Part shown: in pieces, positions 7,289 through 19,170 of the stretch
Numbering within the stretch: position 1 is the first letter of the stretch
Layout of the letters: each line of letters begins with the position of its first letter
From: an uncultured Thermoleophilia bacterium
GTDB taxonomy: Bacteria; Actinomycetota; Thermoleophilia; UBA2241
Direction: 5' to 3'
Assembly (NCBI GenBank): GCA_963695395.1
Contig: CAVOGK010000026.1
Span: forward strand, 60,511-124,510
DNA length: 64,000 nucleotides
Made by a program: the position numbers and the translations under genes
Notes under the pieces: model-generated
What the model saw: only the letters and a program-made list of their open reading frames with translations
What the model was told of the DNA's origin: nothing
Database searches by the model: none

Positions 7289-7630
7289 TCACGTGATGGC
7301 GTCGCGGCCGCGCTGGCCGGTGCGCGTGCGCACGGCGTCGTCGATCGGGAGCACGAAGATCTTGCCCTCGCCGATCTGGTTGCTCTTGAGAGAGTGGGAG
7401 ATGGCGGCGACGATGCGCTCGACGTCCTTCTCGAGCACGACCATCTCGACCTTCATCTTGGGGTGGAAGCGGTACTCGCCCGGCTTCGTATCTTCGCCGC
7501 GCGTGAACCCCTTCTGGACGCCGAAGCCTTTGACCTCGGCGACCGACATACCGACCACGCCCTCGACCGCCAGGGCCTCGGCCACGGTGTCGAGGTTGTA
7601 CGGCTGGATGTAGCACTCGATCTTCTTCAT
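7289..7630 (-). CDS. glnB: Nitrogen regulatory protein PII (GlnB/GlnK family)
   Basis: MKKIECYIQPYNLDTVAEAL... 113 aa. ATG at 7630 with AAAGGAG SD. The ORF-track start at 7723 is an upstream extension. Confidence 0.9.
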   Translation of the reverse strand: MKKIECYIQPYNLDTVAEALAVEGVVGMSVAEVKGFGVQKGFTRGEDTKPGEYRFHPKMKVEMVVLEKDVERIVAAISHSLKSNQIGEGKIFVLPIDDAVRTRTGQRGRDAIT

Positions 7631-7729
7631 GCTCGCCGCTCCTTTCAGCCCACCGGGCTTGTGACCCGGCGGGATGCGCTCAACTGATACGCAAGCTTGT
7701 GCTGCGTCGTACCTGCCCCACAAGGTGTC

Positions 7730-9091
7730 TCAGACGACGCCCTGGTCGAGCATCGAGTCGGCGACCTTGAGGAAGCCGGCGATGTTCGCGCCCGCGACGT
7801 AGTTGCCCTCCATGCCGTACGCGGCGGAGGCCTCGACGCACTGCCGGTGGATGGCCTTCATGATGCCGTGCAGGCGGGCGTCGACTTCTTCACGCGTCCA
7901 GCTGAGGCGCAGGCTGTTCTGCGACATCTCGAGGCCGGACGTGGCCACGCCGCCGGCGTTGGCCGCCTTGCCGGGGCCGTAGAGGATCCCTTTGTCCACG
8001 AAGAGGTTGACGCCCTCGGGGACGGTCGGCATGTTGGCGCCCTCGGAGACCACGTACACGCCGTTCTTCAGCAGGTTCGCGGCGTCCTTCGCGTTGATCT
8101 CGTTCTGCGTCGCGCTCGGGAAGGCGCAGTCGGCCTTGTGGTCCCACAGCGGGTTGAAGTCCCTGGCCTTGTCGACAGGCGTGTAGACGGCGCTCTGGAA
8201 CTTGTCGGCGTACTCGCTGATGCGGCCGCGCTTGACGTTCTTGAGCTCGAGGAGGAAGGCGAGCTTCTCGCGATCGATGCCGGCCTCGTCGTAGATGTAG
8301 CCGCCGGAGTCGGAGCAGGTGACGGGCTTGCCGCCCAGGTCGAGGATCTTCTCGATGGCGTACTGGGCCACGTTGCCCGAGCCGCTGACGAGGCAGGTCT
8401 TGCCCTCGAGCGTCTCGCCGCGCGTGGTGAGCATCTCGGCGGCGAAGTACACGGCGCCGTAGCCGGTCGCCTCCGGACGGATCAGCGAGCCGCCCCAGTT
8501 GAGACCCTTGCCGGTGAGCACGCCGACGAACTCGTTGCGCACGCGCTTGTACTGGCCGAACATGAAGCCGATCTCACGGCCGCCCACGCCGATGTCGCCG
8601 GCGGGCACGTCGGTGAACTGGCCGATGTGGCGGCACAGCTCGGTCATGAGGCTCTGGCAGAAGCGCATGACCTCGATGTCGCTCTTGCCCTTGGGGTCGA
8701 AGTCCGAGCCGCCCTTGCCGCCGCCCATGGGGAGCGTGGTGAGGGAGTTCTTGAAGACCTGCTCGAAGGCGAGGAACTTGAGGATGCCGAGGTTGACGGT
8801 CGGGTGGAAGCGCAGGCCGCCCTTGTACGGGCCGATGGCGCTGTTCATCTCGATGCGGAAGCCGCGGTTGACCTGGACCTCACCCTTGTCGTCGACCCAC
8901 GGCACGCGGAAGATGATCACGCGCTCGGGCTCGGAGATGCGCTCGAGGATCTTGGCCTCGCGATACTTGGGGTTCTTGTCGAAGACGACTTCGAGGGACT
9001 CGGCCACCTCTTCGGCGGCCTGATGGAACTCGGCCTCGGCCGGGTTCCTGGCCTTGAGCCAGGCCATGTATTCGTCGACGAATGCGCTCAT
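7730..9091 (-). CDS. gdhA: NADP-specific glutamate dehydrogenase
   Basis: 453 aa. GDH motifs [15 protein letters not shown] and [20 protein letters not shown]. Confidence 0.95.
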
Positions 9092-9423
9092 GTAGTGCCC
9101 TCCACGTAGGCGTATGGGTGATGTCGGGTGGCGTGATCAGGCTTCGCACACGCCGCGCGCGCCCGGACGACAAGAGCGCGAGGCGCCCGGAGTATACGCC
9201 CTCGCCCGCCACCCCGCAGTCGCCATCCGGGCCAAACTTGGGCGGTGCACGTGGGCCACTTGGTACACCGTGGCGAACCGGCGCGCGTAGGGACCGCAGT
9301 GGCCGGCTGCCGTGTCTGCCGCGGGTGGCGGGCCAAGCCTTCCGAACCCGCCACATTCGCTCGTCATGTCTTGGACATTTAGTACAAGTAGAGGGCGTCT
9401 GGTTGGCTCTCCTCTCGCCCTCA

Positions 9424-16686: not shown

Positions 16687-17747
16687 GTGGGTCGCCTCTC
16701 CCCTGCGCCGATCAGGCGAGCCCGAGGTACTTGTTCGTGAGCCCCACGGCCTCGAGGCGGTCGGTCTGCATGCTGAGCGCCGCGCGCACGGCGTCCACGG
16801 TCTCGGGGATCACCACCGACTCCTGCGGGATGTTGATCGCGAACATGAACTCGCGGCCGCTCTTGGCGATGGTCTCGTCGAAGACGGCGATGTCGTACAT
16901 GTCGGCGCGCTTGTTGCCGAGGTCGCGGGCGTAGCGGAACAGCGCCGCGTTGCTGTTGAAGCCGTCGGCGATCTTGACGGGCCGGATGCGCGGGTGCGCC
17001 GCGAAGAGCTCGAGCGCCCGCTCCTTGCTGACGTCGCGCCTTGGTGGTGGCGATCACGTTGATGATGTGGCCGTGCGTGGTGGGCACGTGCACGAGCAGG
17101 CCGGTGGCCTCGATGTGCGGCATGATCGTCATCAGGTCGAGCGCCTGGTGGTTCGGGACGGGCTCGACCTGAGCGACGTCGACGAGCCCGCGGTGCGTGT
17201 CGCCGGGGTCGGCGACGCGGCGCACGATGGTGACGATGACGCGCTCCACGCCGACCTCGCGGTCGAGGCAGTCGACGGCGCGGATGAGGCCGGTGGTGTT
17301 GCAGCTGGTCAGCTTGAGGTAGTCCCGCCCGACGCCCTTCTCGTAGTTGGCGTAGCCGTGGAAGAAGACGTCGACGATGTCGTTCTTCTCGCCGCCCTGG
17401 AAGACGGCCTTGACGCCCTTCGCCTGGTAGAGCTCCTTGTTCTTGCGCCCCACGCCGCCGGGCGAGGAGTCGAGCACGATGTCGACCTTGCCGAGCAGGT
17501 CGTCCATGGTGCCGGTGACCGGGATGCCGACCTCGTCGAAGGCGGCCTTCTGGCCGGCCTCGACCACGTACAGGTCGTAGGGCATGCCCGACTCACACAG
17601 GGCGCGCGTCGAGAGCGTCGGCGCGACGTCGACGACGCCGACCAGCTCCATGTCGCCCTGCAGCGCCACGCCGTCGGCGAGACGCTGGCCGATGACGCCG
17701 TAGCCGACGACGCCCACTCTTGGCTTGCTCATGTTCCGCTCCTTCAA
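16683..17747 (-). CDS. gap: Glyceraldehyde-3-phosphate dehydrogenase, type II (archaeal type), C-terminal frameshift(s)
   Basis: VGVVGYGVIGQRLADGV, AVFQGGEK, LTSCNTTGL and VTIVRRVADP match archaeal GAPDH. The C-terminal part continues in the frame of ORF 16712-16900. Confidence 0.8.
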   Translation of the reverse strand: MKERNMSKPRVGVVGYGVIGQRLADGVALQGDMELVGVVDVAPTLSTRALCESGMPYDLYVVEAGQKAAFDEVGIPVTGTMDDLLGKVDIVLDSSPGGVGRKNKELYQAKGVKAVFQGGEKNDIVDVFFHGYANYEKGVGRDYLKLTSCNTTGLIRAVDCLDREVGVERVIVTIVRRVADPGDTHRGLVDVAQVEPVPNHQALDLMTIMPHIEATGLLVHVPTTHGHIINVIATTKARRQQGAGARALRGAPAHPARQDRRRLQQQRGAVPLRPRPRQQARRHVRHRRLRRDHRQERPRVHVRDQHPAGVGGDPRDRGRRARGAQHADRPPRGRGAHEQVPRARLIGAGERRPT

Positions 17748-17771
17748 GCGTCATGCCGCCGCCGGCGGCGA

Positions 17772-19170
17772 TCAGTAGCCCAGTTCCTTCTCGACGACGC
17801 CGATCGACTCGTCGAGCACGTTCACGACGGTGTCGATCTGCTCCTTGCTGATGATGAACGGCGGCGCGACCGCGTGCACGTGGCCGCCGCCCAGCAGGCG
17901 CACGAAGACGCCGCGCTTGAACGCCTCGTCGCGGATCTTCGCGGCGACGCCCTGCGCCGGCGCGAACCACTCACGCGTCTCCTTGTCCTTGACGTACTCG
18001 ATGCCGGCCACGAGGCCGACGCCGCGCACGTCGCCGACGATCGGGTGCGCGAGCAGCGTGGCGAGGCCGTCCTGCAGGTACGGACCGAGCTCGGCGCAGC
18101 GCTCGACCAGTTTCTCGCGCTCGACGATCTCGAGGTTGGCGATGCCGGCGGCGCAGCACAGCGGGTGACCCATGTAGGTGGCGCCGCTCATGAACGCCTC
18201 GCCCGGGGCCGCCGAGGAAGGCGTCGAACACGTGGTCCTTGGCGCCCACGGCGCCCAGCGGCAGGTAGCCGGAGGAGAGGCCCTTGGCCAGCGTGATCAG
18301 GTCGGGGTCGGAGCCGAACTGCTCGAAGCCGAACCAGGTGCCGCTGCGCCCGAAGCCGGTGATCACCTCGTCGTTGATCACGAGCACCTCGTTGGCCTTG
18401 CAGATCTCGTTGACCATCGGCCAGTACTCGGGCGGCGGCGGGATCACGCCGCCGGTGCCGATCATCGTCTCGCCGAGCATGGTGCCGACGTTCTCGGGGC
18501 CGTAGAAGGCGATCTCCCCTGCGACCTGCGTGGCGCACTCCATCTTGCAGTCGTCGCCGTAGGTCTTGTTCCACTCGCAGCGGTAGCAGTACGGCGCGCC
18601 GAGCTTGATGAAGCCGGGCAGCAGGGGCTCGAACTTGGCGCGGTTCACGGTGAGGCCCTGGGCGCTGACGCTGGTCATGGTCGTGCCGTGGTACGAGCGG
18701 TCGCGGAACATGACCATGTACTTGGTGCCTTTGCCCTTGTTGCGCCAGTACTGACGCGCCATCTTGACCGCGGTCTCGACCGACTCCCCGCCGCCGAGCG
18801 TGAGAAAGACGTGGTTCAGATCGCCGGGCATGTGCTCCGCGACCTTGGCGGCGAGCTTGATGGCCGGCTCGTTGCCGATCTGGAAGATGTGGTAGATGGC
18901 CAGCTTCTGCATCTGGGCGTTGATGGCGTCGTAGATCTCCTGGCGGCCGTGGCCGACGTTCACCGTCCACAGGCTGGCGAAGGCGTCGATGTACTCGTTG
19001 CCGTCGCTGTCGTAGACGAGCGCGCCCTCGGCGCGCTCCATGATCACCGGCTTGAGGCCCTCCATCTGCGTGAAGGGGGGCCAGAGGTGCTCGAAGGACT
19101 CGTCCTTCATCCCACCGTCGGCCGCGTGTTCCTTGTCTGCCATGAGTCCTTCCTCTCCGCTGGTATCCAC
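17772..19170 (-). CDS. Class III (omega/BioA-like) aminotransferase, one frameshift near 18190-18240
   Basis: HLWPPFTQM, PLP-lysine region EVLVINDEVITGFGRSGTWFG. C-terminal part in ORF 17772-18191. Confidence 0.8.

Follow-up and report, generated by a model that had tools for sequence, protein, structure and literature searches.

A candidate catabolic island for C4 ω-amino acids, centred on one transaminase, in an uncultured Thermoleophilia bacterium

Results

Two convergent gene sets

The window, a 64,000-nucleotide stretch of contig CAVOGK010000026.1 from an uncultured soil Thermoleophilia bacterium, contains between 7.3 and 27.3 kb an island of genes for an ω-transaminase, an MttB-superfamily methyltransferase, an ABC importer, the abf enzymes of 4-hydroxybutyrate metabolism and a cassette of three proteins that resemble glyceraldehyde-3-phosphate dehydrogenase (GAPDH), phosphoglycerate kinase (PGK) and the racemase LarA. 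We analysed it entirely in silico and read it as a conserved catabolic island for C4 ω-amino and ω-ammonio acids, in which the transaminase would be a hub with two branches behind it; we give this reading a probability of about 40%.

The G+C content of the window is 69%, and random open reading frames (ORFs) are therefore abundant. Coding frames were picked by third-position GC and then checked with Pfam and NCBIfam. The genes fall into two convergent sets, a minus-strand one (26.4 to 14.1 kb) and a plus-strand one (9.6 to 14.1 kb), whose ends lie 62 bp apart. The first set runs in the order binding protein, OppB, OppC, OppDF, MttB1, aminotransferase, GAPDH-like, PGK-like and LarA; 75 bp separate mttB1 from the aminotransferase gene, 39 bp the latter from the GAPDH-like gene and 17 bp the PGK-like gene from larA, while the GAPDH-like and PGK-like genes overlap by 4 bp. 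The second set comprises abfD, an ORF of 113 residues, abfT and a gene for an iron-containing alcohol dehydrogenase (Fe-ADH). Spacing and strand suggest two convergent transcription units; scans for promoters and terminators gave nothing beyond chance. The features are as follows.

Minus-strand set:
20650-26400, minus: Opp/Dpp-type ABC importer (Pfam), directly upstream of mttB1, gene order conserved in relatives
24576 to about 26400, minus: its family-5 binding protein (frameshifted)
23571-24536, minus: its permease OppB
22654-23574, minus: its permease OppC
20650-22660, minus: its fused ATPases
19219-20649, minus: non-pyrrolysine MttB-superfamily methyltransferase MttB1 (Pfam MTTB, 251 bits over residues 5-468), no internal stop or amber codon
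17772-19170, minus: class-III ω-transaminase of the pyruvate-type subgroup (Pfam Aminotran_3 on both pieces of a broken frame), probable start 19143 or 19110
16683-17732, minus: type II (archaeal-type) GAPDH-like protein, proposed phosphorylating D-malic-semialdehyde dehydrogenase, one frameshift near 17037
15433-16686, minus: archaeal-type PGK-like kinase, proposed D-malyl-phosphate:ADP phosphotransferase (Pfam PGK, 330 bits), two compensating indels
14138-15415, minus: LarA-family nickel-pincer 2-hydroxyacid racemase, malate-racemase-like, about 160 nt out of frame in the window

Plus-strand set:
9600-11099, plus: AbfD, predicted 4-hydroxybutyryl-CoA dehydratase / vinylacetyl-CoA isomerase (Pfam HpaB_N and HpaB; 768 bits against 1U8V)
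11102-11443, plus: conserved 113-residue ORF with four cysteines (motifs YCGGCNPHIDR...SGCPRACAS), between abfD and abfT and part of the abf operon
11440-12780, plus: AbfT/Cat2-type 4-hydroxybutyrate CoA-transferase (514 bits against 3EH7, 491 against 3GK7)
12786-14075, plus: Fe-ADH (Pfam Fe-ADH), putative succinic semialdehyde reductase / 4-hydroxybutyrate dehydrogenase, a role taken from context only

Flanks:
7292-7630, minus: P-II nitrogen regulator of 113 residues (Pfam P-II, 81.8 bits), 99 bp downstream of the next gene on the same strand
7730-9091, minus: NADP-specific glutamate dehydrogenase (GDH; NF006929, 749 bits, cutoff 536)
9092-9599: divergent intergenic region of 508 bp between GDH and abfD, with one sigma-70-like match at 9424-9452 (plus), no more than in shuffled sequences
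26758-27345, plus: AsnC/Lrp-family regulator (Pfam), divergent from the importer operon, position conserved in relatives

The first-pass annotation had named AbfD, AbfT, an Fe-ADH, an NADP-type GDH, a class-III aminotransferase and MttB in these positions, and Pfam, NCBIfam and PDB scores bear out all six. It had put the aminotransferase upstream of mttB1; by the direction in which both are transcribed it lies downstream. Of the complete route from 4-aminobutyrate (GABA) to crotonyl-CoA that it had seen here, the genes are present, but the aminotransferase frame is broken and three genes that had been overlooked fill 14138-17747 on the minus strand. Two ORF calls were revised: the call at 7289-7723 is an N-terminally extended form of P-II, and a plus-strand ORF at 20954-23197 was discarded, as it has no Pfam match and the coding frame there is that of the fused OppD/F ATPases on the minus strand.

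A transaminase with interchangeable neighbours

The aminotransferase belongs to an orthologue group of 457-residue proteins at 70-96% identity, with intact members at 96%. Its best NCBIfam models are PRK07480 and PRK06541 and its closest structures 6IO1, 6GWI, 5TI8 and POP2, with 270-350 bits and an estimated identity of about 40%. POP2 is the pyruvate-dependent GABA transaminase of plants. No GabT model occurs among the 25 best NCBIfam matches, and no curated cutoff is reached. By these scores the enzyme is assigned to the pyruvate-dependent ω-transaminases and is not GabT-like; a couple with 2-oxoglutarate and GDH is therefore not indicated, and the earlier statement that exactly the enzymes of GABA fermentation are encoded here is overstated. 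GABA is a plausible substrate.

With the repaired aminotransferase as an anchor, we collected 44 related genomic loci and four metagenome loci, on which all proteins of the window were placed by tblastn. The close relatives of the aminotransferase are all found in metagenome-assembled genomes (MAGs) of Thermoleophilia or Actinomycetota, many with 'MFD' isolate names, which by these names and their scattered frameshifts we take to be long-read assemblies. The closest contig (L040), from a soil MAG labelled 'Thermoleophilia bacterium', matches 7803-19207 of the window at 91.8% DNA identity.

Gene architecture was counted in the 29 Thermoleophilia loci that reach 9.5 kb or more past the downstream side of the transaminase. 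Fifteen have the full arrangement of the window, with GAPDH-like/PGK-like cassette, LarA, abf genes and GDH, and one more has cassette and abf without LarA. Another nine carry the cassette, usually with LarA, and no abf genes; GDH stands directly behind LarA in two of these and likewise in L002. The aminotransferase is directly convergent with the genes for Fe-ADH, AbfT, the 113-residue ORF and AbfD, followed by GDH and P-II, in two loci without GAPDH-like, PGK-like and LarA genes (L005 and L023). Neither module is found in the last two. Thus, the GAPDH/PGK pair follows the transaminase in 25 of the 29 loci, abf genes lie near it in 18 and both occur together in 16. One MAG has both module types at separate loci (L005 and L041), each with a transaminase of its own.

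The aminotransferase is the constant element of these loci, at 82-97% identity, and its partners are interchangeable aldehyde-consuming modules. The MttB protein beside it is variable (45-84% identity): that of L023, which has the minimal layout MttB-aminotransferase beside Fe-ADH, AbfT and AbfD, is an orthologue of a second MttB of the window, MttB2, at 72% identity. A third way of aldehyde disposal is seen in two loci (4110-7234 of L003, and L004): next to a transaminase copy that is 83% identical, the start of an aldehyde:ferredoxin oxidoreductase gene meets the transaminase stop, and genes for FixC/FixX-like flavoproteins lie upstream. At L003, one of the two loci with neither module, this oxidoreductase comes right after the aminotransferase.

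It is possible that the two sets of the island are independent, abf handling 4-hydroxybutyrate or succinic semialdehyde from elsewhere (e.g. from succinate reduction or 4-hydroxybutyrate uptake) and its adjacency to the transaminase reflecting shared ancestry. All loci belong to one lineage with transaminases 82-97% identical, the abf genes lie on the other strand and are present in 18 loci and absent from 11, and GDH closes the gap they leave in L002, L024 and L026. However, L005 and L023 have lost transporter and cassette, L005 the MttB gene as well, and still keep the transaminase directly beside abf; nor did scans of the window find a SucD- or GabD-type source of succinic semialdehyde. The coupling between aminotransferase and abf is real enough to outlast rearrangement, and we hold independence of the two sets to be improbable.

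The abf operon and glutamate dehydrogenase

AbfD aligns Cys100, Cys104, His292 and Cys299 with the [4Fe-4S] ligands C99, C103, H292 and C299 of the Clostridium aminobutyricum enzyme (1U8V), which confirms the C-x3-C ligand motif noted earlier in this protein. Besides its 768 bits against 1U8V it scores 637 bits against 6VJR; HpaB structures reach at most 155 bits, and the protein stays under the HpaB equivalog cutoffs. AbfT has both Pfam domains of the two-domain acetyl-CoA hydrolase/transferase fold and keeps the catalytic Glu238 (3GK7 numbering; motif GIHSEM). On this homology both count as genuine orthologues of the 4-hydroxybutyrate enzymes, with predicted activity. An exact-sequence look-up of the AbfD of the window returned no match.

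The 113-residue ORF at 11102-11443 has no Pfam or NCBIfam match. All loci with abf carry it in frame between the genes abfD and abfT, at 50-89% identity and with a variable linker; it is possibly a metal or Fe-S protein accessory to the operon.

The Fe-ADH had been called a 4-hydroxybutyrate dehydrogenase. It matches Pfam Fe-ADH, starts 5 bp past abfT and always adjoins AbfT in the relatives, but it scores only 243 bits with the 4-hydroxybutyrate dehydrogenase model NF058672 (cutoff 500). The models for ErcA, lactaldehyde reductase, SarD and GbsB all score above NF058672 and each under its own cutoff; no NCBIfam equivalog is attained, and its neighbours in the PDB are enzymes for methanol, propanediol and lactaldehyde. 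Its putative role follows from the adjacency to AbfT.

The branch from GABA through succinic semialdehyde and 4-hydroxybutyrate to crotonyl-CoA, as first proposed, is credible on the orthology of AbfD and AbfT, because abf lies near the transaminase in 18 of the 29 loci and because of the layouts of L023 and L005. We also considered a carbon fixation pathway of the 3-hydroxypropionate/4-hydroxybutyrate type and rejected it from context: a CoA-transferase rather than a synthetase activates the acid, and no succinyl-CoA reductase is encoded nearby. With the abf branch, a known pathway is seen in a new host and setting.

GDH is divergent from abfD and adjacent to abf in all 18 abf-bearing loci. 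Its presence beside abf, which had been read as part of the amine route, stands as adjacency, but GDH and P-II are kept by loci without abf (L002, L024 and L026, with GDH directly after LarA) and the 2-oxoglutarate couple is not indicated. NADP-type GDH is typically assimilatory. P-II, 96% identical to its L005 orthologue, lies directly behind GDH, and together with thioredoxin, DUF302 and IlvD genes the pair forms a conserved flank of the island. Because GDH is of the NADP type, is followed by P-II and is retained without abf, we consider the pair more likely a conserved backbone, or a matter of ammonium assimilation, than a component of the amine pathway.

The cassette of GAPDH-like, PGK-like and LarA genes

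The intact L001 orthologue of the GAPDH-like protein scores 397 bits with NF003251 (cutoff 185), 308 bits with TIGR01546 (cutoff 233) and 253 bits against the structure 2CZC. The catalytic SCNTT motif is kept. Across the whole bacterial clade PSHHGPD is replaced by P(N/S)HQA(V/K)D (PNHQAVD in the window) and VHQE by IPQE; we take the SHH and VHQE motifs of archaeal GAPDH to bind anions or phosphate. The PGK-like protein has its best PDB match in 2CUN of P. horikoshii (285 bits). In all cassette PGKs the motif HLGRP/HQGKP has become HQGGD or HQGDT: the basic residue equivalent to R65 (human PGK numbering), presumably a ligand of the 3-phosphate of 3-phosphoglycerate, is gone, and the other ligand positions are kept. 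Among the latter are an Asp and an Asn, which we assume to bind the 2-hydroxyl of 3-phosphoglycerate.

The intact LarA of L040 reaches 476 bits with the LarAH6 model for malate racemase, where the cutoff is 500, and 342 bits, at 45% identity, against the malate racemase Mar2 of Thermoanaerobacterium thermosaccharolyticum (6D6Z). Comparison at the substrate residues of Mar2 (Y172/K173, Q293, K351) shows the motifs Q-K and GHK retained and K173 replaced by phenylalanine in all cassette LarAs. Both kept motifs have been assigned to malate recognition (Desguin et al. 2020). The table of LarAH gene contexts in the same work lists 3-phosphoglycerate kinase as a neighbour for group 4; for group 6 it gives COG0179 and malic enzyme. 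A COG0179 gene of the FAA-hydrolase family lies between LarA and Fe-ADH in most loci of full architecture (6802-7491 in L001); it is absent from this gap in the window, which has a paralogue at 57216-57902.

Outside Thermoleophilia, GAPDH-like proteins 70-75% identical occur in Moorella, Carboxydocella, Caloramator, Pelotomaculum, Chloroflexota and others, and the PGK-like gene follows in every context examined. In Moorella the pair precedes LarA and a 2-oxoacid dehydrogenase complex. In Pelotomaculum and a Bacillota MAG, LarA is replaced by an Iso_dh enzyme that scores 458 and 471 bits with the tartrate dehydrogenase family TIGR02089 (cutoff 470.4), a family that presumably includes decarboxylating D-malate dehydrogenase. 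The cassette LarAs of Moorella and Caloramator pass the LarAH6 malate racemase equivalog, with 544 and 606 bits (cutoff 500).

Carboxydocella and Caloramator carry the pair inside a cluster of the inositol type (L051 6416-21029, L053 2095-20118) with a sugar ABC transporter, IolG, IolE, IolD, an IolB/KduI homologue, a split transketolase, LarA and malic enzyme. An IolC-type (PfkB) kinase, an aldolase and a semialdehyde dehydrogenase were not identifiable in these clusters; Carboxydocella has a phosphofructokinase-family gene (PF00365). They look like an undescribed, transketolase-dependent anaerobic inositol route that ends in malate.

The common denominator of these contexts is D-malate, so the simplest substrate of the GAPDH/PGK-like pair would be (R)-3-hydroxy-4-oxobutanoate (D-malic semialdehyde). 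This compound is D-glyceraldehyde 3-phosphate with -CH2-COO- in place of -CH2-OPO3, and the active-site changes in the cassette PGK and GAPDH fit such a substrate. By textbook stereochemistry, the same (R)-aldehyde should arise from transamination of (R)-4-amino-3-hydroxybutyrate, which has the configuration of carnitine, and from transketolase cleavage of 2-deoxy-5-keto-D-gluconate. Since the three genes directly follow the transaminase in 25 of the 29 loci, a hydroxylated aldehyde is the proposed substrate, and the cassette probably forms a second, undescribed branch that yields ATP. It is a more novel element than the abf branch.

Alternatively, GABA might be disproportionated, with one part of the succinic semialdehyde reduced through abf and the other oxidised by the GAPDH/PGK-like pair through succinyl phosphate to succinate, with gain of ATP. 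Such a scheme would be redox-balanced and use every dehydrogenase, and cassette and abf do co-occur in 16 of the 29 loci. It leaves unexplained LarA, and likewise the malic enzyme and TIGR02089 dehydrogenase neighbours elsewhere, and it does not account for the retained Asp and Asn of the PGK-like enzyme, if these bind a 2-hydroxyl; we regard it as quite unlikely.

Ordinary glycolytic or gluconeogenic enzymes of archaeal type, acquired by transfer and apart from the amine pathway, would be another explanation of the pair. The scores above the type II GAPDH cutoffs, the conserved catalytic cysteine and most PGK ligands agree with it, as does an enolase gene 7 kb from the pair at L055. Against it stand the clade-specific changes in active-site motifs and the recurrence of the pair across phyla in catabolic operons with malate enzymes. 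Moreover, a relative, the type II GAPDH CDQ83_07070 of P. thermosuccinogenes, had no activity on glyceraldehyde 3-phosphate with NAD+ or NADP+, and functional evidence for type II GAPDH in bacteria was said not to exist (Koendjbiharie et al., PMC6543838). The primer-encoded ends of CDQ83_07070 (VKVGV..., ...MGKWK) resemble the ends of the cassette proteins of Carboxydocella and Caloramator. We consider this explanation very improbable.

MttB1 and the importer

MttB1 scores 169 bits against the glycine betaine methyltransferase MtgB (9YCE). Glycine betaine was rejected as its substrate, as four ligands of MtgB are replaced (Y97C, R312A, H348G and F356V). Characterised enzymes of the MttB family strip one methyl group from a quaternary amine, and the substrates named are all quaternary (PMC13080624). 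The position of the MttB gene upstream of the transaminase suggests that the imported compounds are quaternary, of the γ-butyrobetaine and carnitine type, in line with the first-pass idea, which this widens to carnitine; a transaminase directly after MttB implies in turn a primary amine. The demethylation link to the pathway is plausible but incomplete. The first-pass proposal of quaternary-amine catabolism through MttB keeps the association of abf with ω-transaminase and MttB (18 of the 29 loci), but the later demethylations are not encoded in the operon.

Several other genes of the window belong to the same chemistry. A fusion protein of 655 residues (33486-35453, minus) joins a URO-D domain (MtaA-like) to B12-binding_2 and B12-binding domains, and a separate URO-D-family gene lies at 58099-59175 (minus); they probably provide the corrinoid protein and second methyltransferase for MttB paralogues. 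MttB2 (38522-40054, minus) is encoded by the last gene of a module at 38522-44543, after a short-chain dehydrogenase/reductase (SDR), an ADP-forming acyl-CoA synthetase (CoA_binding, Succ_CoA_lig and ATP-grasp domains) and a GNAT-domain protein, with an AsnC regulator divergent from it: a second quaternary-amine module. A third mttB gene (63343-64000, minus) runs past the end of the window and has an in-frame TAG at 63829-63831. The Rfam pyrrolysine insertion element PYLIS_3 matches directly after it, at 63732-63831 (64.5 bits, gathering score 38), making this gene a candidate pyrrolysine-containing trimethylamine methyltransferase in Thermoleophilia.

One alternative to two branches is the linear route originally drawn: a γ-butyrobetaine-like compound would be demethylated to GABA by MttB types, transaminated with 2-oxoglutarate and GDH, and converted to crotonyl-CoA, the cassette being a bystander. 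All the enzyme types that it names are present, GDH adjoins abf in 18 of 18 loci, and L023 shows MttB and aminotransferase directly beside Fe-ADH, AbfT and AbfD and GDH-P-II without any cassette. Yet the transaminase is pyruvate-type, and the GDH is NADP-type, comes with P-II and stays without abf. In 25 of 29 loci the supposed bystanders come right behind the transaminase, closely spaced or overlapping, and the later two demethylations lack candidate enzymes in the operon. We judge the linear route unlikely.

Frame breaks in the minus-strand set

Compared with every relative examined, the stretch from 14.1 to 26.4 kb carries at least 13 single-base insertions and that from 7.3 to 14.1 kb (P-II, GDH and abf) none. 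A +1 insertion near 18204, GGCCCC[G]GGC, splits the transaminase into two overlapping ORFs. Others are found in the genes for the GAPDH-like protein (17037), the PGK-like protein (15908 and about 15813), LarA (15199, 15048 and 15030), OppDF (about 21021) and the binding protein (at least six). The breaks look technical, because all are insertions and related MAGs have scattered frameshifts of their own; their spread, however, is uneven, with the breaks concentrated in the minus-strand set. Should the insertions prove genuine, this strain has a decaying transaminase operon, and the 'complete route' would not be complete here.

Other genes of the window

A protein of 432 residues without Pfam or NCBIfam family is encoded at 54359-55625 (minus, frameshifted) and, at 86% identity, at 7051-8349 of L023. 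In L023 it stands between an AsnC regulator and the MttB-aminotransferase pair; in the window it heads an operon of beta-lactamase-fold, hydrolase, BKACE, SDR and thiolase genes. Thiolase, SDR, AMP-ligase and BKACE had been proposed as downstream steps of the route. The genes exist, but they lie at least 30 kb away and in other operons. Adjoining the amine island, 27944-33413 encodes a SulP permease, ATP sulfurylase, a sulfotransferase-domain protein and a D-2-hydroxyacid dehydrogenase, and is a sulfate-activation or sulfation module.

Discussion

A transaminase with two proposed outlets

In the mechanism that we favour, MttB would presumably take a methyl group from a quaternary precursor of the γ-butyrobetaine or carnitine type, and the transaminase would convert a 4-aminobutyrate-type amine to an aldehyde, which then would enter one of two branches. 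In the first, succinic semialdehyde derived from GABA would be reduced to 4-hydroxybutyrate by the Fe-ADH, activated by AbfT and dehydrated by AbfD, giving crotonyl-CoA; here AbfD and AbfT are identified by homology, and we infer the flow and the substrates of Fe-ADH and transaminase. The second branch, inferred throughout, would start from D-malic semialdehyde made from (R)-4-amino-3-hydroxybutyrate, the backbone of carnitine. Phosphate-dependent oxidation by the GAPDH-like enzyme would give D-malyl phosphate, from which the PGK-like enzyme would make D-malate with one ATP gained, and LarA would racemise D-malate to L-malate.

A precedent for the intermediates is found in Acinetobacter baumannii, where the carbon of L-carnitine passes through malic semialdehyde specifically to D-malate (Piskol et al., PMC11353897). 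Our literature search returned no natural phosphorylating malic-semialdehyde route, no transketolase-type inositol pathway and no MttB with abf in Thermoleophilia; only a synthetic malyl-phosphate pathway, on the other regio-isomer, turned up.

Several observations count against this mechanism. The substrate of the transaminase is not readable from its sequence. Products of characterised MttB-family enzymes are tertiary amines, which a transaminase cannot use; the operon has one MttB gene only, and the second and third demethylations are left without candidate enzymes in it. The importer is of the Opp/Dpp type, atypical for betaine or carnitine. The abf genes, on the opposite strand, are missing from 11 of the 29 loci, and their coupling to the transaminase is therefore not obligatory. 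As for the cassette, the GAPDH-like protein lies above the NCBIfam cutoffs for type II GAPDH, the Thermoleophilia LarA falls just under the malate racemase cutoff (476 versus 500 bits) and has the loop HYF instead of HYK, and the enolase at L055 means that some family members may be ordinary GAPDH and PGK. The negative assay of CDQ83_07070 was made with crude extract (PMC6543838). Finally, the minus-strand set may be non-functional in this genome.

A wider reading would join all of these elements into a trimethylamine-free breakdown of L-carnitine and γ-butyrobetaine: corrinoid-dependent demethylation to primary amines, one ω-transaminase, a D-malyl-phosphate branch that conserves ATP beside the AbfD branch, and the same cassette ending an inositol route in Firmicutes, which would account for the orphan 'archaeal' GAPDHs found in bacteria. 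Taken as a whole, it seems to us doubtful. A bolder variant would have Fe-ADH, AbfT and AbfD accept the hydroxylated aldehyde as well and lead through 3,4-dihydroxybutyryl-CoA to acetoacetyl-CoA, a redox-balanced and self-contained fermentation.

If the two-branch mechanism is true, carnitine-type quaternary amines would be fully broken down in soil without trimethylamine, which bears on osmolyte recycling, and light would fall on the large, mostly uncharacterised non-pyrrolysine MttB superfamily. The bacterial 'archaeal-type' GAPDH/PGK pairs would gain a function as a new ATP-conserving oxidation of 2-hydroxy-aldehyde acids, and D-malate a physiological source that would explain the widespread nickel-pincer malate racemases. 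The AbfD route, for its part, would be in use beyond clostridial fermenters and autotrophic archaea.

Comparison with known systems

The 4-aminobutyrate fermentation of C. aminobutyricum consists of GABA transaminase, GDH, AbfH, AbfT and AbfD. The island shares with it the Fe-S ligands of AbfD, which are identical, Glu238 of AbfT, an adjoining Fe-ADH and a class-III transaminase nearby. It differs in having a pyruvate-type ω-transaminase instead of the 2-oxoglutarate-dependent GabT type, an NADP-type GDH followed by P-II and kept without abf, an additional cysteine-rich ORF of 113 residues between abfD and abfT, and a high-GC actinobacterium as its host.

Like MtyB and MtcB of E. limosum, which act on γ-butyrobetaine and L-carnitine, and MtgB of D. 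hafniense, MttB1 is a non-pyrrolysine protein of the MttB family, with genes for corrinoid-binding and URO-D-type methyltransferase proteins elsewhere in the window. The substrates of MtyB and MtcB are quaternary amines with a C4 backbone (PMC8604678, PMC13080624). Whereas the known enzymes take one methyl group, here the MttB gene is followed by a transaminase gene, and the ligands of MtgB are absent.

Malic semialdehyde and D-malate, followed by central metabolism, are the intermediates proposed for the island and are shared with the carnitine route of A. baumannii (PMC11353897). There, an oxygenase cuts the C-N bond and releases trimethylamine, the aldehyde dehydrogenase is non-phosphorylating and D-malate is decarboxylated. 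For the island we propose instead demethylation and transamination, an ATP-conserving phosphorylating pair of the GAPDH/PGK type and a nickel-pincer racemase.

The pair itself has the folds and catalytic cysteine motif of archaeal type II GAPDH and PGK (2CZC, 1CF2 and 2CUN), at about 45% identity as estimated by eye, but it forms a distinct bacterial clade with altered active-site motifs and stands in catabolic operons with malate enzymes. The cassette LarA, similarly, matches LarAH6 and Mar2 (6D6Z) in the catalytic Q-K and in the GHK motif for the second carboxylate and departs from them in the phenylalanine that replaces Lys173.

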